NCBI GenBank assembly: GCA_035300145.1
Contig: DATGVQ010000015.1
Span: 1 to 59,598 of the forward strand
Origin: Acidiferrobacterales bacterium
Lineage (GTDB): Bacteria > Pseudomonadota > Gammaproteobacteria > Acidiferrobacterales > DATGVQ01
Reading direction: 5' to 3'
DNA: 59,598 nt
The notes under the pieces are model-generated. The model saw only the letters and a program-made list of their open reading frames with translations. It was not told the origin of the DNA and ran no database searches. Position 1 is the stretch's first letter; each line of letters starts with the position of its first letter. Made by a program: the position numbers and the translations under genes. Below are positions 19,056 to 58,897 of the stretch, one piece after another.

Positions 19056-20181
19056 ACTTTCCTCCACGCGCAGGTAATTTGAGCACTGCGCGATATAGCC
19101 CGTTTTCTATAGTGGCCTCCAACTTCGCCGACGTTCCATAATGACTGTTAAGACGTTGGCGAATATTATCCAGCACCATCTCTTGACCTTTCTGCAGCTT
19201 AGGTGCGAGCGGCGGTGCTAACGGATTAGTTACACTGATATGAATCAATTCGTTCTCTTCCCATAGTTTTACATTAATGTTGCCGCCGCCGGCCAAAGAC
19301 TCTACCCCGTAATAGATGGCGTTCTCCAACAAGGGCTGTAAAGTCAACACCGGCATCACCGCTTTGCGGGGAAATTTACCGATATCCCAATTCACTCTAA
19401 GGCGATTATCCAGCCGCAAAACCTCCAGGCTTAAATATTTCTGCGCAACAGCGATTTCATTCTTTACCGGCACCAAGTTCTCCGCATCGCTTAACATCAT
19501 GCGAAACAAGTCGGCGACATCTTCAATTGCCGTCTCGGCCTTATGGGGAGCGACGCGGACAAGACTGGCGATACTATTCATGCTATTAAAGAGAAAATGC
19601 GGGCGGATACGTGACTGCAAGGCCTGCATTTTTGCCCGCGCTTCGGAGATCGTACGCTGCTTCAACTCGTGCTTGGCGAGAAAATAACGCAGCACCAGGG
19701 CATTGATAATGGCGCTGACCGATAAATTCTGCACATGGAAATAAGCATACCATTCCGGGTGCGGAGAGCTGATTTTACCCATACCCACCAATAGCCACAA
19801 TGCGCCCTCTCCCACTAGAAACGTAATGCTCAGCAATAAAAAATAGGCCGCGGTGAGCGCGTGCAAATTTGACAGCTGGCTTAAATATCGGCGCGCCGCG
19901 CATAGAGCCGCTACGCTTGCCAACGCAATCCATTGCACGAAAATGGAGATGATCAGCAAATCTTGCAAAATATTGGTGAAAATGCGGCGAGTAATAAGGG
20001 TAAAAACAAATGCCGACATTTCCGCAATCAGCGCCACGTTCAGGACCATCGCGCCGGTGCAAAAATTCGGTAAAAAATGAGAGTCCTCTTCACCGCGGTC
20101 TATCGCTCCCGCGGGGCGCAAGCCGGTTATTGCATCGCTTAACCACTTGTGAATAATGTTTTTAGAAAGTTCCATCTTCAA
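19036..20181 (-). CDS. AlgZ/FimS (LytS)-type sensor histidine kinase
   Basis: 381 aa, multi-TM N-terminus, with the H-box RIRPHFLFNSMNSIASL (His_kinase PF06580 type). Confidence 0.8.
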   Translation of the reverse strand: MKMELSKNIIHKWLSDAITGLRPAGAIDRGEEDSHFLPNFCTGAMVLNVALIAEMSAFVFTLITRRIFTNILQDLLIISIFVQWIALASVAALCAARRYLSQLSNLHALTAAYFLLLSITFLVGEGALWLLVGMGKISSPHPEWYAYFHVQNLSVSAIINALVLRYFLAKHELKQRTISEARAKMQALQSRIRPHFLFNSMNSIASLVRVAPHKAETAIEDVADLFRMMLSDAENLVPVKNEIAVAQKYLSLEVLRLDNRLRVNWDIGKFPRKAVMPVLTLQPLLENAIYYGVESLAGGGNINVKLWEENELIHISVTNPLAPPLAPKLQKGQEMVLDNIRQRLNSHYGTSAKLEATIENGLYRAVLKLPARGGKYENLDS

Positions 20182-21242
20182 CCTTTAACAATTGGCATTT
20201 TCACTTTAACGTGATACTGATTGCCTTCTTCGAAGCTTTGCATGGCGGCGCCGCTGCCAAAGTAAGTGAACAAACGCTGGCGAATGTTATCCATCGCGAT
20301 TTTGTTGCCTTTACCATGGGCATGCTTGCGCACCTCAGGCAGCGGATTACTGATTAAGATATTGAGAGTTTTGGCCTCCGCCCAGAGTTCTATTTTAAGC
20401 ACACCCCCGCCAAAACGCGGTTCTATCCCATGATAAATAGCGTTCTCCAGCAGAGGTTGCAAGGTCAAGGCCGGTATCAAGGCATCGCGCGGAATATTAT
20501 CGACATTCCAAGTGACTTTAAGGCGATCCCCCAAACGGAGTTTTTCTATTTCCAAGTATTGACGGGATATTTCGCGTTCTGCCGATATCGGCACCAGCTT
20601 GCGCGCATCCGCCAGCAACACGCGGAATAGATCCGCTAAATCTTGCAGCGCCGCTTCCGCGCGCGCCGGATCGCTGCGTGTCAGGCTGGCGATACTATTC
20701 ATGCTGTTAAAAAGAAAATGGGGCCGGATGCGCGATTGCAATGCCTGTAAACGGGCTTCCTGTTCCAGCTTCGCATCGGTCTGCGCGCGATAACCGAGAA
20801 TTAAATACCTTAAACCCAGGATGCTGCTGACGGCGCCGATAAGCAAGCTGCGAATCAATAACAGCATGTGCCAGTCCGGCCAACGCTCGGGGATAAAGCC
20901 AAAGTAGTAAAGGATAAATATCGTCGCCTCGGTTCCGCCGGCGATGGCGCCTAGCAACAATAAGAATACGATTACCGAGCCCGCCGTCAACGACATATGC
21001 CGTATCCATGCCGATACCAGTTTGAGTACGATGATGGCGCTTACCGCGATGGTTAATGCCAACAAGGACAACAAACGGAAATCCTGCCATGCCGGCTGAT
21101 TTAAAACCGGATTACGGCATATCGCGGCAATAATAGCGATGATTTCGGCAAAGAAAATAACGCTTATAGCAACCCGGAATGAACCGAAATCCGGCAAAAA
21201 ACGCTGCGCCTGGGGCTCCTTTTTTAGGCTGGAACTACTCAT
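20178..21242 (-). CDS. second AlgZ/FimS-type sensor histidine kinase (paralogue)
   Basis: 354 aa with an identical H-box RIRPHFLFNSMNSIASL. It overlaps the downstream kinase by 4 nt. Confidence 0.8.
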   Translation of the reverse strand: MSSSSLKKEPQAQRFLPDFGSFRVAISVIFFAEIIAIIAAICRNPVLNQPAWQDFRLLSLLALTIAVSAIIVLKLVSAWIRHMSLTAGSVIVFLLLLGAIAGGTEATIFILYYFGFIPERWPDWHMLLLIRSLLIGAVSSILGLRYLILGYRAQTDAKLEQEARLQALQSRIRPHFLFNSMNSIASLTRSDPARAEAALQDLADLFRVLLADARKLVPISAEREISRQYLEIEKLRLGDRLKVTWNVDNIPRDALIPALTLQPLLENAIYHGIEPRFGGGVLKIELWAEAKTLNILISNPLPEVRKHAHGKGNKIAMDNIRQRLFTYFGSGAAMQSFEEGNQYHVKVKMPIVKG

Positions 21243-29750: not shown

Positions 29751-30010
29751 ACGACAAATTCGCCGGGAGCGAATTTGGAACGCGTAGCGGCCCCGAAGGG
29801 GTGAGGCACAGGATGTGCCGAAACACAAATTCGCCGGGAGCGAATTTGGACGCGCGCAGCGCGCCCGTGAGGGTGCGTGCCAGGGATGGTGCGCATCAAA
29901 AGCAAAAAGTGGCCGCTCTTGCGCATCCTTGCGCTCGGCCGTGCCCTCCGTCCCGCCTCCCGCGGCATTACTACTTCCCTGTACGGCACGGCATTCGTGC
30001 GTCCTGCACA
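29751..30010. repeat. cluster of GC-rich palindromic repeat units
   Basis: ACAAATTCGCCGGGAGCGAATTTGGA occurs twice (29753-29778 and 29824-29849). GAGGCACAGGATGTGCCG, CCAGGGATGG and CGGCATTACTACTTCCCTGTACG are homologous to the units at 31518-31628 and 57550-57640. Confidence 0.75.
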
Positions 30011-31097: not shown

Positions 31098-32234
31098 TCA
31101 CCTCGCAAGGTTTTTAGATGGGTCTTTAGCGAACTCAAACGAATCGAAATAGAGATTTTCCGGCAATAGGCGATGCTGTGTGAACAAAGCTTTACCGGCT
31201 TCGATCATAGGCGGTGGCCCGCTGGCATAAATCTCATACCGGCTCAAATCCGGATAATCCCGCGCTACCGCCTCATGCACCCATCCTGTTCGTCCGGGCC
31301 ATTGATCTTCAGGCAGGGGCTCGGACAGCACCGGCGTATAGTGAAAATTAGGATAACTGCGCTCCCACGATAATGCCAACTCATGCAAATACAAGTCGCG
31401 CCGGGCGCGTACGCCCCAGAATAAATGCAGCGGAAGGGTTACGCCGGTGTGAAAAGCATGCTCGAGTATTCCCTTAATCGGCGCGAAGCCGGTGCCGCCC
31501 GCCATCAGGATAATAGGGCATTCGGGCGCCGCTCCCGGCATCCCTGCGCCCGCGACGCACAGGGATGTGCAAGTGTCGCGGGAGGCAGGATGCCGGAAGC
31601 GACCGGCATTAGTACTTCCCTGTACGTCATTTTCGCGCAGAAAGAATGTCCCCAACGGCCCCTCGAAACGCAGCAGCGCCTTTTCTTGCATTTGGGTAAA
31701 AACATGATCGGAGAAATGGCCGCCAGGGACATGGCGGATGTGAATTTGTAAAAACGCGTCATCATGTGGCGCGTTGGCAATAGAAAAACTGCGCCGGCGG
31801 CCGTCGCGCAACAAAATATCGATATACTGCCCGGCCAGAAATTGCAGGCGCTCTTGCTGCGGCAGTTTCAGATACAAAACCATGACATCGTGCGCCAGTT
31901 TCTCCAGCTTAACGACCCGGCAAGGCAAGATTTTAATCGCAATATCTTTTGCCGCCTCGATTTCACGCGCCTGGATCATCACGTCTTCCAACGGCACCGC
32001 CTGGCAGAACAAGGCCTTGCCTTGCGCCTTCTCCTCCGCGCTCAACGCCTTGGCCTCATAGTCGCCGTAATCCACCCTGCCGGACAATACCGTGCCTTTA
32101 CAACTACCACAGCGACCGTCGCGGCAACTGTAGGGCAGGCGCAAGCCTTCGCGCAGCGCCGCGGCGAGGATGGTCTCGCCGTCTTGGGTGTGGAACTCAT
32201 GACCGCTAGATTCGATATGGACTTTAAAACTCAT
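31098..32234 (-). CDS. 2Fe-2S ferredoxin fused to an FAD/NAD(P)-binding reductase (AscD/Fre-like), carrying a 37-codon repeat-derived insertion
   Basis: It has CRDGRCGSCKG...C (2Fe-2S), RRSFSIAN (FAD) and GGTGFAP (NAD). See the findings for the insertion. Confidence 0.85.
   Translation of the reverse strand: MSFKVHIESSGHEFHTQDGETILAAALREGLRLPYSCRDGRCGSCKGTVLSGRVDYGDYEAKALSAEEKAQGKALFCQAVPLEDVMIQAREIEAAKDIAIKILPCRVVKLEKLAHDVMVLYLKLPQQERLQFLAGQYIDILLRDGRRRSFSIANAPHDDAFLQIHIRHVPGGHFSDHVFTQMQEKALLRFEGPLGTFFLRENDVQGSTNAGRFRHPASRDTCTSLCVAGAGMPGAAPECPIILMAGGTGFAPIKGILEHAFHTGVTLPLHLFWGVRARRDLYLHELALSWERSYPNFHYTPVLSEPLPEDQWPGRTGWVHEAVARDYPDLSRYEIYASGPPPMIEAGKALFTQHRLLPENLYFDSFEFAKDPSKNLAR
31518..31628. 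repeat. palindromic repeat unit inserted in frame in the reductase gene
   Basis: Inverted termini GACGCACAGGGA (31554-31565) and TCCCTGTACGTC (31617-31628). An inner hairpin pairs CATCCCTG with CAGGGATG. It is homologous to the intergenic copies at 29.9 kb and 57.6 kb. Confidence 0.75.
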
Positions 32235-39896: not shown

Positions 39897-41736
39897 ATCG
39901 GGATAGGGCGACGCCTCACGGCGCCGCTCCTCCCACACCACCGTGCGTACGGATCACGTACACGGCGGTTCGATGAATAAAATTCCTACCGTGCTGCAAG
40001 AACAGGTAGCCCCATGTTACTGAAGTACCGCACCGGCAGGGCCAGTGCGAGCGCCGGGGTCTTGGACAGCCGCCAAGGGCCATGCGCGGACTTGCTGGTG
40101 TGCCATGCTTCACGCACGCTCACACCGCGTTTGCGCAGCTCCCGATAGCCGGCTCGTCCCCATTGCTTCCAGATATAACAGCGTAATTTGCGGCGTACCC
40201 ATTTGTCTATATCGCGCAGAGGGCTCAGCACTTCGGCAATGCCGAAGTACGCTTTCCATCCAAGCAGGGTTTCTCTCAGCTCTGCAACGATATCCATCAA
40301 ACGGCGGCCTCGCGTACGACGGGTCAGCGCGCGCACGCGCGCCTTGAGCTTGTCGATGGCTTGATCCGCCACCTTGAGCCGGACGCCTTGACGGCTGACC
40401 GTGAAGCCCAGAAACTTGCGTTGTGCTGGGCGATCCACCGCGCTTTTCAGCGGATTCACTGTGAGTCGCAGTGTGTCGCTGATGAAGCGGCTTACGCTTG
40501 TCATTACCCGCTCACCGGCACGTCGGCTTCTGACCAGGATGTTGCAGTCGTCGGCATAACGCGCGAAGCGGTGGCCGCGCCGTTCCAGTTCCCAGTCCAG
40601 TTCGTCGAGCACCACGTTGGCCAACACCGGGGAGAGCGGCCCGCCTTGCGGTACGCCCATCGTTGTCGCTTCGGTGTGTTCGCCGACACGGACACCCGCC
40701 TTGAGGTAGCGATTGATGAGTCGCAACAGGTCAAGGTCCGAACAGCGGTGTTTGAGCCGCGCCATCAACCGGTCGTGATTGACCCGGTCGAAGAACGCCT
40801 GCAAGTCCACGTCCACCACCCAACCCCAACCTTCCCGGATACTCGCTTGCACGTGGCGCACCGCCTGATGGGCCGAGCGCTGTGGGCGGAATCCGTAGCT
40901 GTGAGGGTGAAAATGGGGTTCCCATTGCGCTGTGATCACTTGCGCGATGGCTTGCTGGATAAATCGGTCCAACACCGTGGGAATGCCCAAGGGACGGGTC
41001 TTCCCATCCGGCTTCGGGATCTCCACGCGCCGCACGGGTTGTGGCCGGTAGGTGCCCGACAGCAATTGGGCACGCACGGCTGGCCAGTGGTGGCGGAGAT
41101 AGTCTGGCAGGTCATCGACCGTCATGCCGTCGATGCCCGGCGCGCCTTGGTTCCGGCGTACTTGCTTTAGTGCGCGCTGCAAATTCTCGCGTTCCAACAC
41201 GCGAGCCAGCAGCGCTTGGGGTTGAATCGACTCGGCATGCCCAGGCTCTCCAGTGACGGCTTCATCCTGCGCGGTGCGCGCAGCCGACGTTCGTCGGTGG
41301 TCAGGTGCGTTGCCGTCTCTCTTCACTTGTCTGCCTTGTCATTCATCGTTCAGGCCTTCGACGGCGCCATCCGCCTACTATGCCTTTTGCTGACTTCTCC
41401 ACGGTATTCAGCGCCGATCTCTCGGCGCCCAGCTTCGTTGCTTTGAAGCACCGGGGGAGATCTCCCGGGGTAAGGCACGTTACTGTCGCGACACGAGCGC
41501 CGGATTTACAAAGTACACCCCAACCGCAGATGGAGGGCTTCGCGGTCACGTGCCCGCTCGCCCCGGATGTACCACGCCTAGTATCCGGTTTTTGTTCATC
41601 GCCCCGCCGCTTTGCGTTGGGCTTCCTTCAGACCCCACCTCACGGTGACGCCCTTGCCCTTCCGCTAGCCTTCGGCTCTGCGAAAACCTGGCTGTCGGAC
41701 TTTCACCGACATAGTTACGTGCCATGCCCGGCACAC
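39897..41736 (-). mobile_element. group II intron, bacterial class C (IIC), complete
   Basis: The 5' end is GTGTG at 41736. Domain V at 39938-39968 (CCGCCGTGTACG..CGTACGCACGGTGG) has a CGC triad and a 2-nt bulge. Domain VI has a bulged A, and the 3' end reads ...CCTATCCCGAT. Length is 1840 nt. The RT ORF lies in domain IV. Confidence 0.8.
39986..41326 (-). CDS. group II intron reverse transcriptase/maturase (no endonuclease domain)
   Basis: 446 aa with ...GAPGIDGMTV...RVEIPKPDGKTRPLGIPTV...RYADDCNILV..., plus a C-terminal maturase X domain. Confidence 0.9.
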   Translation of the reverse strand: MKRDGNAPDHRRTSAARTAQDEAVTGEPGHAESIQPQALLARVLERENLQRALKQVRRNQGAPGIDGMTVDDLPDYLRHHWPAVRAQLLSGTYRPQPVRRVEIPKPDGKTRPLGIPTVLDRFIQQAIAQVITAQWEPHFHPHSYGFRPQRSAHQAVRHVQASIREGWGWVVDVDLQAFFDRVNHDRLMARLKHRCSDLDLLRLINRYLKAGVRVGEHTEATTMGVPQGGPLSPVLANVVLDELDWELERRGHRFARYADDCNILVRSRRAGERVMTSVSRFISDTLRLTVNPLKSAVDRPAQRKFLGFTVSRQGVRLKVADQAIDKLKARVRALTRRTRGRRLMDIVAELRETLLGWKAYFGIAEVLSPLRDIDKWVRRKLRCYIWKQWGRAGYRELRKRGVSVREAWHTSKSAHGPWRLSKTPALALALPVRYFSNMGLPVLAAR

Positions 41737-50741: not shown

Positions 50742-51605
50742 TTAACTGCCGGTTGCAACAGGATGTCTGGGATCGCGTATCCACTCGCTCCAAGAGCCGG
50801 GATATAAACGCGAGCCGGACAGACCGGCGATTTCCATCGCCAGCAGATTGTGACAAGCGCTGACGCCGGAGCCGCAGCTATGAATCACTTTGTCCGGCGG
50901 TTTAGTGTTAGATAAATCGACAAACGCGGCGCGCAGCGTGCTGGCCGGAAGAAATTTTCCATTGGCATCGAGATTGCGTTCGAGCGGCCGGTTCACCGCG
51001 CCGGGAATATGGCCGGCGACCGGATCCAGCGGTTCTTGCTCGCCGCGAAAGCGTTCCGGCGCGCGTGCATCCACCAGCAGGTCTTCGGGCTGTTGCAGTT
51101 GCTCTTCGATATAACGGGTCCTTACCCACATGCGGTCGTTCGGCTTCGCCACGAAGCGTGTGGCGGTTGGACGCGGCAGAGTCGTCTCGAGTGGCCCGCC
51201 TTGCTGCTGCCACGCGGCGAAGCCGCCATCAAGCACCGCGACCGCGTAGTGCCCCAGCCAGCGCAGCAACCACCACAGGCGCGCGGCGATGGCATTGGTG
51301 TTGTCATCATAAGCCACCACTTGCTTGCCGGCATCGACGCCCCACTGCCCGAGTTTATCCGCAAACACAGGCGGCTTTGGCAGCGGATGGCGCCCGGTCG
51401 TCACGGTTTTCCCGCGGCTAAGATCGCGATCCAGATCAGCGTAGCGCGCGCCCGGTATGTGGCTGGCCTGGTACGCGCGCAGGCCCGCTTGCGGATCGGC
51501 TAAACGAAAACGGCAATCAAAGATGATCCACTGGGGATCAGATAAATGCGTCTTTAGTGCATCGACGGTGACTAACGTAGTAAAAGCCATGTGATATTGT
51601 GCCAT
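50742..51605 (-). CDS. sseA: 3-mercaptopyruvate/thiosulfate sulfurtransferase (tandem rhodanese)
   Basis: The start is at MAQYHMAFTT (51605) or MAFTT (51590). The active-site loop is HSCGSGVSA. The track ORF extends spuriously to 51728. Confidence 0.85.
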   Translation of the reverse strand: MAQYHMAFTTLVTVDALKTHLSDPQWIIFDCRFRLADPQAGLRAYQASHIPGARYADLDRDLSRGKTVTTGRHPLPKPPVFADKLGQWGVDAGKQVVAYDDNTNAIAARLWWLLRWLGHYAVAVLDGGFAAWQQQGGPLETTLPRPTATRFVAKPNDRMWVRTRYIEEQLQQPEDLLVDARAPERFRGEQEPLDPVAGHIPGAVNRPLERNLDANGKFLPASTLRAAFVDLSNTKPPDKVIHSCGSGVSACHNLLAMEIAGLSGSRLYPGSWSEWIRDPRHPVATGS

Positions 51606-51679
51606 ATTTACCAGCCGTGGTTTAATCTGCACGAGTTTAAGCCCAAAATAACGGAATAATAAGCAACCACTATGTCCGA
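51596..51679 (+). repeat. left copy of the 84-nt direct repeat flanking the GC-rich island
   Basis: Gapless alignment with 58039-58122 at a constant offset of 6443 nt gives 71/84 identical, and 43 of the first 45. It includes ATGTCCGA, the start of the enoyl-CoA hydratase gene. Here that start leads only to a 10-codon dead-end ORF. Confidence 0.85.
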
Positions 51680-51700
51680 CACGCGGAAAAACTCGCGGAT

Positions 51701-57429: not shown

Positions 57430-57549
57430 AGGAGGCACCCCCATGGCACTACCTTAAGCACCTTTGATCGAGGATACGGCGCCGGGGGGCTAAGAGCAAC
57501 GAGTAGCCCGCATGAAGCGACAGCGAAATGCGGGGGAGCCCGCCGACGG

Positions 57550-57640
57550 CACCGTCCATCCCCGGATTCCGCCCCACAGGGACGTGGAAGTGTCGCGGAA
57601 GACAGGATGTCGGGAGCGACCGCTCCGCTCCATCCGGGCT
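57550..57640. repeat. third copy of the GC-rich palindromic repeat family
   Basis: CCACAGGGACGTGGAAGTGTCGCGGAAGACAGGATGTCGGGAGCGACCG aligns with 31558-31606. Confidence 0.7.
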
Positions 57641-57700
57641 ACAAACTTAAGTCGCCACGGAGTCTACGTTTACGGTAGCGCCATTGTGCTCTGACATGAA

Positions 57701-58038: not shown

Positions 58039-58122
58039 ATTGTGCCATATTTGCCAGCCGTGGTTTAATCTGCACCAGTTTAATCGCAAAACCAGGGGAA
58101 CAAAAGGAACCACCATGTCCGA
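58039..58122 (+). repeat. right copy of the 84-nt direct repeat flanking the island
   Basis: See 51596-51679. This copy leads into the intact enoyl-CoA hydratase gene, and it retains only the first three codons (MAQ) of sseA on the opposite strand. Confidence 0.85.
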
Positions 58123-58897
58123 AACCATTCTTGTGCGGCACGATAACGATATTGCCACGGTCGTACTCAACCGGCCGGAAAAGCTCAACGCCCTCACCAA
58201 GCCTATGTGGAATCAGCTTGGCGAGACCATACGGGAACTTTCCGCCGATGACAATCTGCGCTGCATCGTCATCCGCGGCGCCGGCGACAAATCCTTCGCG
58301 CCCGGAAACGACATCTCCGAATTCGAAAACGAGCGCTCCAACGTCGAGCAGGCAAGAGATTATGGCGAAGTGCATCACCGATCGCTCGCGGCATTGGCGG
58401 AATGCCGCCACCCCATAGTCGCGATGATCAAGGGCATTTGCGTCGGCGGCGGACTGGAGATCGCGGCGTTGTGCGATATGCGCATCTGCGGCGAATCGAG
58501 CCGCTTCGGCATCCCGATCAATCGCTTAGGCTTAGCCTTGGGCCTCGGCGAAATGCACGGATTGCTGTCCCTGGTCGGCAAAGCCGTGACGCTCGAGATT
58601 TTGTTGGAAGGCCGGGTGTTCGGGGCGCAAGAGGCAAAGGAAAAAGGCTTGGTTACCCGGGTGGTCGCCGACGACCAGGTCGAGGAGGAGGCCTATGCCA
58701 CCGCCCGGCGCATCGCCGATGGCGCGCCGCTGGTGGCGCGCTGGCACAAGAAATTCATGCGCCGCTTAACGCAAGACCCCACGCCGGTCACCCACGCCGA
58801 ACTTGACGAGGCCTACGCCTGTTATGGCACGGAAGACTTTCAGATCGGCTATAAATCCTTCCTCGCTAAAACGCAGCCGAAGTTCAAGGGGCGCTGA
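58115..58897 (+). CDS. enoyl-CoA hydratase/isomerase (crotonase) family protein
   Basis: The start is MSETILVRHDNDIATVVLNRPEKLNAL. It contains ...RGAGDKSFAPGNDI...GICVGGGLEIA. Confidence 0.85.
   Translation: MSETILVRHDNDIATVVLNRPEKLNALTKPMWNQLGETIRELSADDNLRCIVIRGAGDKSFAPGNDISEFENERSNVEQARDYGEVHHRSLAALAECRHPIVAMIKGICVGGGLEIAALCDMRICGESSRFGIPINRLGLALGLGEMHGLLSLVGKAVTLEILLEGRVFGAQEAKEKGLVTRVVADDQVEEEAYATARRIADGAPLVARWHKKFMRRLTQDPTPVTHAELDEAYACYGTEDFQIGYKSFLAKTQPKFKGR

Follow-up and report, generated by a model that had tools for sequence, protein, structure and literature searches.

What is the extra DNA that lies within a reductase gene of an Acidiferrobacterales bacterium, and how did the gene come to accommodate it? 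The gene, an open reading frame (ORF) at 31098..32234 on the minus strand, lies in a stretch of 59,598 nucleotides (assembly GCA_035300145.1, contig DATGVQ010000015.1, positions 1 to 59,598), which we call the window, and encodes a 378-aa reductase with a 2Fe-2S ferredoxin domain, an FAD-binding domain and an NAD-binding domain. An earlier note, made from the letters alone, had claimed that a palindromic repeat is inserted in frame within this ferredoxin-reductase gene, and this was confirmed by the ORF itself, by breaks in profile alignments and by orthologues with an empty site. We propose that the extra 102 nt are very probably two copies of a dispersed 51-nt structured repeat, which sit in frame in the linker between the FAD and NAD domains and are predicted to be translated as a disordered loop.

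An extra segment at the domain junction

The protein reads GTFFLREN, followed by the insert DVQGSTNAGRFRHPASRDTCTSLCVAGAGMPGAA and then by PECPIILMAGGTGFAP. Alignments of Pfam and NCBIfam profiles to it split into two pieces, with a break at about aa 203-238 that occurs with every NCBIfam profile of the enzyme class. The solved structures 5OGX and 1KRH align up to residues 201-203 and resume at 239, an interval in which their own chains advance by 2-4 residues only. Comparison with empty-site orthologues placed the insert at 31527..31628 on the minus strand, that is, 102 nt or 34 codons (aa 203-236). It had previously been given as 37 codons (111 nt, 31518-31628), and this had to be corrected: the residues P-E-C belong to the native linker, which in the window reads EN before and PECP after the insert, and in empty-site orthologues E-D-S-D-R-P. 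The insert uses rare A/T-ending codons (GTA, GGA, AGT, ACT and AAT).

We then modelled the window reductase with AlphaFold2 from 118 aligned sequences (mean per-residue confidence, pLDDT, 86; pTM 0.83). Residues 203-235 had pLDDT values below 50 and lacked secondary structure, and this low-confidence segment follows the last FAD-domain strand (187-194) and precedes the first strand of the NAD domain (241-246). The structure prediction that the earlier note had proposed as a check thus places the insert in an unstructured loop between the two domains, and the insert is predicted to form a disordered loop at their junction.

Palindromic repeats can cause mis-assemblies, and the closest homologues of the reductase come from metagenomes and metagenome-assembled genomes (MAGs), i.e. 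from an apparently uncultured source. The insert might therefore be an assembly artefact, or the gene a disrupted pseudogene. However, the reading frame is intact, all cofactor motifs are present and the fold is predicted with confidence, and the identical protein has been recorded from three contigs. The same architecture was also found in independent assemblies, and the repeat family occurs in genomes of Halomonas isolates. We consider either of these explanations extremely improbable.

Two nested copies of a 51-nt unit

The repeat unit has the consensus GAY-GTACAGGGA(A/C)GTAC-(A/T)A(A/G)T-GCCGCGGGAGGCAGGATGCCGGGAGCGGC-(C/G). It spans 50 nt from GAY to GCGGC and, with one further base, 51 nt, which is exactly 17 codons. 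It contains two hairpins, the first with a 4-bp stem and a 6-nt loop and the second with an interrupted 5+4-bp stem and a 3-nt loop, and its two GGA motifs lie about 25 nt apart. A covariance model built from 64 distinct copies recovered 134 copies in the fetched loci.

In the window, this model resolved the insert into two units. The head of an outer, gene-sense unit occupies 31604..31628 (minus strand) and consists of GAC, hairpin 1 (GTAC-AGGGAA-GTAC) and TAATGCCG (model match at 31592-31628, minus strand, 43.4 bits). Its tail, at 31527..31553 (minus strand), consists of hairpin 2, GCGGGCGCAGGGATGCCGGGAGCGGC, plus one base (model match at 31528-31556, minus strand, model positions 22-50). 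Between them, at 31554..31603 on the plus strand, lies a complete inner unit that is inverted relative to the gene; it gave a full-length match of 61.5 bits (E = 2.6e-14), and its stems show compensatory changes (GCAC/GTGC and GTCGC/GCGAC). The outer unit is interrupted by the inner one between its positions 24 and 25, i.e. between its two hairpins, and nesting at this same position was also found in reductases from other lineages (L001, L002 and L073) and in a MiaB gene (L049).

The palindromes described in the earlier note are present (CATCCCTG at 31539 and CAGGGATG at 31560). So are the sequences that it had taken for 12-nt inverted termini (GACGCACAGGGA at 31554 and TCCCTGTACGTC at 31617), although these are the heads of two separate units rather than the ends of one element. 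Similarly, its proposal of one element resembling MITEs (miniature transposable elements with inverted repeats) or repetitive extragenic palindromes (REPs) was right in that the element appears to be non-autonomous and REP/MITE-like, whereas the insert comprises two nested 51-nt units and lacks the terminal inverted repeats and target duplication of a MITE.

Two further units lie in intergenic DNA of the window. The first, at 29938..29987 (minus strand, 49.1 bits), is located between the convergent genes hemY and czcD, and the second, at 57571..57620 (plus strand, 54.6 bits; hairpin 1 stem CCAC/GTGG), between two inverted GTAG-type REPs. Homology of the insert to these places had been suggested at 29962-29984 and near 57588-57622, and we recovered both matches, at 29963-29985 (one mismatch in 23 nt) and 57570-57622 (85% over 53 nt), with no match in shuffled controls. 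In total, the model finds three full units and the split outer unit in the window. The hemY-czcD intergenic region also contains several other small GGA-loop hairpins on both strands and a perfect 26-nt direct repeat, ACAAATTCGCCGGGAGCGAATTTGGA, at 29754-29779 and 29825-29850, 71 nt apart, each copy of which is itself a hairpin (AAATTCGC/GCGAATTT).

A dispersed and structurally conserved repeat family

We scanned one genome per species for the head motif of the unit and obtained at least 106 genomic stretches; the family counts given below rest on the matches listed in that scan. Most come from Acidiferrobacterales, Sulfuricaulis, Sulfurifustis and unclassified gammaproteobacterial MAGs, and others from Halomonas (isolates included), Sedimenticola, Colwellia, Chromatiaceae, Ectothiorhodospiraceae, Steroidobacteraceae, Arenicellales and Natronospirales, all of which are Gammaproteobacteria. 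Several MAGs contributed three to five different contigs with a unit. Full units in non-gammaproteobacterial bins are few (e.g. L013 and L086) and may reflect binning contamination, and others, such as L014, L041 and L062, look like chance matches.

The two hairpins are supported by covariation. Pair 26-47 occurs as CG (46 copies), UA (8) or UG (6), and pair 32-41 as GC (28), AU (13) or CG (6); none of 500 shuffles reached the observed covariation score, and the slid controls collapsed. Copies that the model found independently of the search pattern carry other versions of stem 1, namely CTCC/GGAG, CCAC/GTGG, GCAC/GTGC, GTGC/GCAC and TTGC/GCAA, and five diverse units fold independently into one common shape. 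In contrast to the stems, the loops keep their key bases. The hairpin 1 loops of the pattern-independent copies (AGGGAC, ATGGAT, AAGGAT and ACGGAC) vary only at the N positions, with A and GGA fixed, and GGA is present in the hairpin 2 loop of 26 of 27 such copies.

Unit variants also form intergenic arrays of five to seven consecutive GGA-loop hairpins, at four or more loci of one Acidiferrobacterales MAG (L050, L058, L082 and L087). These arrays are sometimes mis-called as short proteins with GRSRHPASRDTCASLHI repeats (P0121 and P0122).

Searches for a described counterpart gave little. The insert returned noise-level miRNA hairpin matches from Rfam, with no intron family among them; the DNA and peptide strings of the unit had no match in the searched literature, nor did the unit peptide match those in the supplement of PMC3733652. 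A homologous-protein search with the insert peptide extended to 40 aa found no shared words. An exhaustive HMMER search with the 34-aa insert gave 12 weak matches, all of them short ORFs across intergenic repeat arrays and thus uninformative on host proteins. The family is apparently undescribed, at least in Rfam and the searched literature.

One reading frame in many host genes

A census by longest ORF over-called antisense ‘R0’ ORFs, and we used the codon-position periodicity of GC content to tell real genes from such antisense shadows. With this filter, 39-41 of the approximately 106 sampled copies lie within real genes, and every one of them is sense-oriented and read in frame 0; for any other frame there are two candidates at most. 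The frame that is used (DVQGSTSAAGGRMPGAA) reads (D)VQG[S/R]T[S/N]AAGGRMPGAA. The repeat is present not only in intergenic regions of the window but also in many other genes and genomes, so that the search for further copies proposed in the earlier note came out in its favor.

The in-frame copies span at least 20 protein families. Twenty hosts were sampled, most of them essential proteins: GlnE (two sites), LeuRS, ValRS (three sites), MetRS, DsbD, an S9 peptidase, Lpd, an epimerase, MiaB, HsdR, a DEAD-box helicase, MurD, topoisomerase I (TopA), KsgA, MetH and PurM. All 29 distinct sites have C or T immediately 5' of the unit, without a repeated flank, and at 27 of them the unit begins with the codon GAT or GAC. 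Eight Halomonas species (L040, L048, L065, L074, L093, L102, L103 and L113) carry one unit at the same codon of valS, in the context LWEDD, VQGSTNAAGDRTSGAA, ELAKRK; an example of the encoded peptide is DVQGSTNAAGDRTSGAA. Among the matches listed, the valS unit is the only one in each of these eight genomes.

The earlier statement that the insert length is a multiple of three and that no stop occurs in the frame of the gene holds for the unit itself, which is 3 x 17 nt and stop-free in the frame used. The reductase gene stays open because of these two properties. The restriction to a single frame would reflect selection against the peptides encoded in the other frames.

A different possibility is that the insert is removed after transcription or translation, in the manner of an intron or intein, so that the mature reductase lacks it. 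The RNA of the insert folds very stably (-62.6 kcal/mol, z = -6.6), and the element is highly conserved at the nucleotide level; both points speak for this reading. However, excision needs neither a fixed frame nor a length divisible by three nor a stop-free sequence, yet all of the roughly 40 sampled intragenic copies share one frame and are open. In addition, no Rfam intron family matches the insert, and 17 or 34 residues are far too short for an intein. An excised insert is therefore most improbable.

Probable gain, loss and erosion at the linker

For 118 close orthologues, we determined the length of the linker that joins G-x-F-F-L-R to GGTGFAP. It is 11 residues long (e.g. EDSDRPxILxA) in 85 of them, so that the absence of the insert from orthologues, proposed earlier as a check, is the usual state. 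Five have 28 residues (+17 aa, DVQGSTNAAGDRKSGAA) and seven, the window included, have 45 (+34 aa); others have tandem, nested-variant, shortened or decayed versions. When a tree was built from the reductases with the linker masked, empty, one-unit and two-unit alleles were interleaved. For example, L117 (empty), L118 (one unit) and L002 (two units) share 93-95% DNA identity and differ by clean 51-nt steps.

The insertion point also differs between alleles. The unit follows linker codon 3 (E-D-S-[unit]-D-R-P) in L118, L002, L001, L043 and L073, and codon 2 (E-D-[unit]-S-D-R-P) in L120, L006, L009, L005 and the window. Since the Ser codon lies on opposite sides of the unit in the two groups, the alignments point to at least two independent insertions, 3 nt apart, in this linker.

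Units can also be lost. The closest relative of the window sequence, L003 (89% protein identity), retains only GGAAGTACTAAT and CCGGCATCCT of the repeat. This remnant fits a microhomology deletion bounded by ATCCT repeats, one copy of which lies in the inner unit and the other in the gene, and thus indicates that the ancestor carried the double insert, which was then eroded in the L003 lineage. In the clade of the window, the unit therefore seems dispensable enough for partial deletion. In L003/L004 (55-1098), the leftover repeat encodes residues (…STNPAPG-ILMAGG) leading up to the first NAD-domain strand; element-derived codons have taken over part of the native linker.

Could the insert instead be a native, lineage-specific loop that evolved in place, for instance by linker expansion, with its likeness to intergenic DNA coincidental or secondary? 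The linker is indeed variable: one orthologue clade has acidic or Ala-rich linkers of 20-30 residues without obvious repeat sequence, and distant orthologues have inserts at about the same place. However, the same 51-nt sequence occurs in more than 20 unrelated proteins and in intergenic DNA, the insert is made of exact 51-nt modules with rare A/T-ending codons, and empty and filled alleles interleave among near-identical genes. We regard a native origin as scarcely credible; the dispersed copies and the 51-nt steps between alleles effectively refute it. Orthologues of 60-65% identity with a similar insert at the same place do not amount to a conserved insertion in repeat-free genomes, because the carriers hold the repeat elsewhere too, the inserts interleave with empty alleles on the tree, and two positions 3 nt apart were used. 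The MAG CAYIQV01, for example, carries a unit in its reductase (L067), in an epimerase gene (L047) and at a third locus (L080).

Given these observations, we favor insertion of the dispersed repeat. One copy came, in gene-sense orientation, into the linker that joins the FAD and NAD domains, and a second copy lies inverted between the two hairpins of the first. With units of 3 x 17 nt and a stop-free frame, the gene stays open, and the insert is predicted to be translated as a Gly/Ser/Ala-rich disordered surface loop. The linker appears to be a permissive place with at least two hits, and units there have probably arrived, doubled, disappeared and decayed within short evolutionary times.

Mode of spread

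The family appears, from the distribution of its copies, to be a non-autonomous, REP/MITE-like repeat that is dispersed in intergenic regions and lies unusually often within housekeeping genes. Several points weigh against our interpretation. The mobility of the unit is deduced from its distribution among genomes and alleles, and a search within 2.5 kb of 60 intergenic-type loci showed no transposase or recurrent neighbor gene next to the copies; what recurred there were ABC-transporter paralogues and syntenic loci. The only Y1 transposase of the REP-associated tyrosine transposase (RAYT) type that we saw, in a relative (L006/L007), is flanked not by the unit but by GTAG REPs (GTAGCCCGGATGGAG). 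That distant orthologues are occupied at the same site could in part be due to exchange of alleles through homologous recombination instead of repeated transposition. Moreover, the scan was selected on an exact head motif, so that the sample, i.e. the matches listed, is biased towards conserved heads; the copies of this organism were counted within the window, and for this organism the translated loop is a prediction.

A tblastn search for RAYT found no other homologue in the window or in loci L011-L116. The GTAG REP type that flanks the L006/L007 transposase also occurs at 57503-57645 of the window, where it surrounds one unit, and is distinct from the unit. There it forms an inverted, REPIN-like pair (GTAGCCCGCATGAAGCG and CGCTCCATCCGGGCTAC) that encloses the unit at 57571-57620.

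Two other ideas were tried and rejected. A 3-nt target duplication (GAT) was suggested by L118, whereas neither L120 nor the window shows a matching 3' flank. An origin in situ, like that of DNA uptake sequences, is contradicted by the comparison with orthologues, in which the units are net insertions.

Tolerated or selected?

The earlier note left open whether the insert was tolerated or selected. In other host genes the unit seems to be under purifying selection at the nucleotide level, whereas in the closest relative of the window it has been partly deleted. We calculated the diversity at third codon positions (d3) in host genes. Across the eight Halomonas ValRS genes, d3 was 0.069 in the unit and 0.362 gene-wide, and none of 866 windows of 17 codons was as low as the unit (minimum 0.185), which makes the unit the stretch of valS with the best conserved synonymous sites. 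Given that the head is part of the search pattern, we repeated the test on the nine tail codons; d3 was then 0.131, and five of 906 windows were as low. For a pair of Lpd genes, the values were 0.059 and 0.476 (0 of 512 windows as low), and for a second ValRS site 0.118 and 0.676 (0 of 409). Three less diverged host pairs had no power for this test. These comparisons indicate that the unit is under nucleotide-level constraint in several host genes. Since the GGA-loop hairpins appear to be under such selection in several hosts, the unit is probably not just neutral filler, in some lineages at least.

What, then, might be selected? One candidate is binding of CsrA/RsmA, a global post-transcriptional regulator. 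The consensus obtained for this protein by SELEX (in vitro selection) is RUACARGGAUGU, in which ACA and GGA are invariant; the sites have stems of up to 4 bp and a hexaloop closed by AC/GU (PMC7652899). RsmE binds an ANGGAN loop, and the repeat of CsrB is CAGGA(U/A/C)G (PMC7652899). Hairpin 1 of the unit, GUACAGGGAAGUAC, agrees with 11-12 of the 12 positions of the SELEX consensus and has the ANGGAN loop of RsmE, while the loop of hairpin 2, CAGGA(U/C/A)G, equals the CsrB repeat (PMC7652899). In other words, hairpin 1 (GUAC-AGGGAN-GUAC) has the general form of a CsrA site, with a GGA hexaloop, a stem of no more than 4 bp and AC/GU closing. The unit could thus primarily be a functional RNA module, a dual CsrA/RsmA site that spread and was then kept by selection in mRNAs and intergenic transcripts, with the protein loop as a by-product.

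Several observations agree with this idea: pattern-independent copies keep A and GGA while their stems covary, synonymous sites in the unit are strongly conserved, every intragenic copy is sense-oriented, the outer hairpin 1 remains free in the predicted fold of the window insert, and csrA homologues occur in two host loci. However, the match is a resemblance in sequence and structure that was noticed after the fact. The Csr/Rsm families of Rfam do not match arrays of units, the searched literature does not link CsrA to REP-type repeats, and intergenic copies show no sense bias (seven sense and seven antisense in co-directional gene pairs). The strict frame would still require selection at the peptide level, and the GGA loops could equally be a recognition signal for a transposase. 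We therefore hold a primarily RNA-level role to be rather unlikely. With the same reserve, we offer only tentatively the corresponding proposal that a putative mobile, dispersed dual CsrA/RsmA site came to be inserted, in frame, in essential mRNAs (tRNA synthetases, TopA, MurD, MetH and others), where RNA-level selection maintains it.

If the CsrA proposal is true, a selfish repeat would bring housekeeping genes into the Csr regulon or would serve as a distributed sponge for CsrA. The CsrA-like loops offer a concrete candidate mechanism, and whether the unit is neutral or selected can be tested directly in a culturable host.

Comparison with known repeat elements

How does a two-unit insert of a 51-nt repeat compare with what is already described? 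Palindromic repeats that lie in frame within genes have been described in Rickettsia and a small number of other genomes and have usually been treated as tolerated junk. Rickettsia palindromic elements (RPE), which Ogata and colleagues reportedly described in 2000 and to which PMC3733652 refers, are short palindromic repeats that lie in frame within many genes, unrelated and often essential; RPE-1 reportedly has a length of about 100-150 bp and is confined to Rickettsia. Like RPE, the 51-nt unit occurs in frame in many unrelated genes with the frame kept, occurs in intergenic regions as well, and adds translated segments that are thought to sit in surface loops (in the case of the unit, by prediction). 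By description, however, it is set apart: it is 51 nt long, has two short GGA-loop hairpins and is found in many gammaproteobacterial orders, and the family uses strictly one frame and orientation and nests at a fixed internal position. The family seems to work like known in-frame palindromic repeats without being a member of the described families.

New here are its occurrence in many gammaproteobacterial orders, the cultivable Halomonas included, and a 17-codon unit that is used in a single frame at about 40 sampled sites. The same applies to self-nesting at a fixed position, rapid turnover at one linker and conservation of synonymous sites above that of the host genes. A practical consequence is that odd loops of 17 or 34 residues in proteins of these lineages should be treated as repeat-derived and not as family-specific features.

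‘REP-decorated proteins’ have been reported for GTAG/CGTC REPs, which consist of a single hairpin of 20-40 bp; a minority of these REPs are intragenic and encode 7-30 residues (Di Nocera et al. 2013, PMC3733652). Intragenic REPs are often hosted by tRNA synthetases and by DNA-metabolism genes, and CGTC REPs have no dedicated transposase (PMC3733652). These REPs resemble the 51-nt unit in being small hairpin repeats that occur singly, as inverted dimers or in clusters, and they share types of host gene with it. The unit differs in its two hairpins, its conserved 21-nt head, its fixed length of 51 nt and the high share of intragenic copies, about 40% of those sampled. A GTAG REP has a GT[AG]G tetranucleotide head next to one palindromic hairpin; the unit, which starts with GAY-GTAC, comprises two hairpins and measures 51 nt, is not one. 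As for the terminal CGTC tag, units starting with GAC end in GTACGTC on the other strand, which contains CGTC, whereas about half of the units start with GAT (ending in ACATC) and some with GCC. CGTC REPs have stems of 8-9 bp, with A/T in the first two positions, and loops of 4-5 nt (PMC3733652), whereas the hairpins of the unit have a 4-bp stem with a 6-nt loop and a 5+4-bp stem with a 3-nt loop.

With REPIN/RAYT systems the unit shares a non-autonomous, multi-copy hairpin structure, frequent inverted pairs and the lack of a target-site duplication. The association with a RAYT differs: in the relative (L006/L007) the RAYT is flanked by a different, GTAG-type REP (GTAGCCCGGATGGAG), and no RAYT was found in the window or in the 106 loci searched. 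A MITE has terminal inverted repeats and usually a target-site duplication, whereas our comparisons show a clean gain of 51 nt and 29 sites without a repeated flank. The QMITEs of Coxiella burnetii (PMC5896051) are likewise non-autonomous, gammaproteobacterial and able to lie in genes and alter proteins. Unlike a MITE, a single 51-nt unit has neither terminal inverted repeats nor a target-site duplication. Finally, CsrA/RsmA hairpins and the CsrB/RsmZ repeat (PMC7652899) share the 4-bp stem, the ANGGAN hexaloop, the AC/GU closing and the CAGGA(U/C/A)G of the second loop. Known CsrA sites, however, lie in mRNA leaders and sponge RNAs (PMC7652899), whereas the unit is dispersed, apparently insertable and located within coding regions.

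Annotation of the reductase and other features of the window

Source annotations name the orthologues of the window reductase CDP-6-deoxy-delta-3,4-glucoseen reductase, and the label (AscD/E3) comes only from these annotations. Fer2, FAD_binding_6 and NAD_binding_1 each score above the Pfam cut-off in the ORF, in agreement with the three-domain architecture of that label. However, no NCBIfam equivalog reached its cut-off for the protein (the best was BenC, with 205 bits versus 430 needed). The gene adjoins czcD and hemY in the window, the hemCDXY synteny around it is kept in relatives, and the neighbors at the reductase loci are hemCDXY, the cation-efflux gene czcD and an ABC transporter rather than deoxysugar genes. 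The label is doubtful, because no equivalog was reached and the conserved neighbors are not deoxysugar genes.

The window contains other repeats and another mobile element. Domains of a group II intron were found at 41353-41649 (minus strand), where the Rfam families group-II-D1D4-3 (132 bits) and D1D4-1 (52.6 bits) both scored above their gathering scores. An 80-nt direct repeat with 80% identity lies at 19547-19626 and 20668-20747, 1.1 kb apart. An 87-nt direct repeat with 84% identity is located at 51596-51682 and 58039-58125, each copy ending in CCACTATGTCCGA, and the two copies resemble duplicated leader or promoter regions belonging to a pair of paralogous genes 6.4 kb apart.

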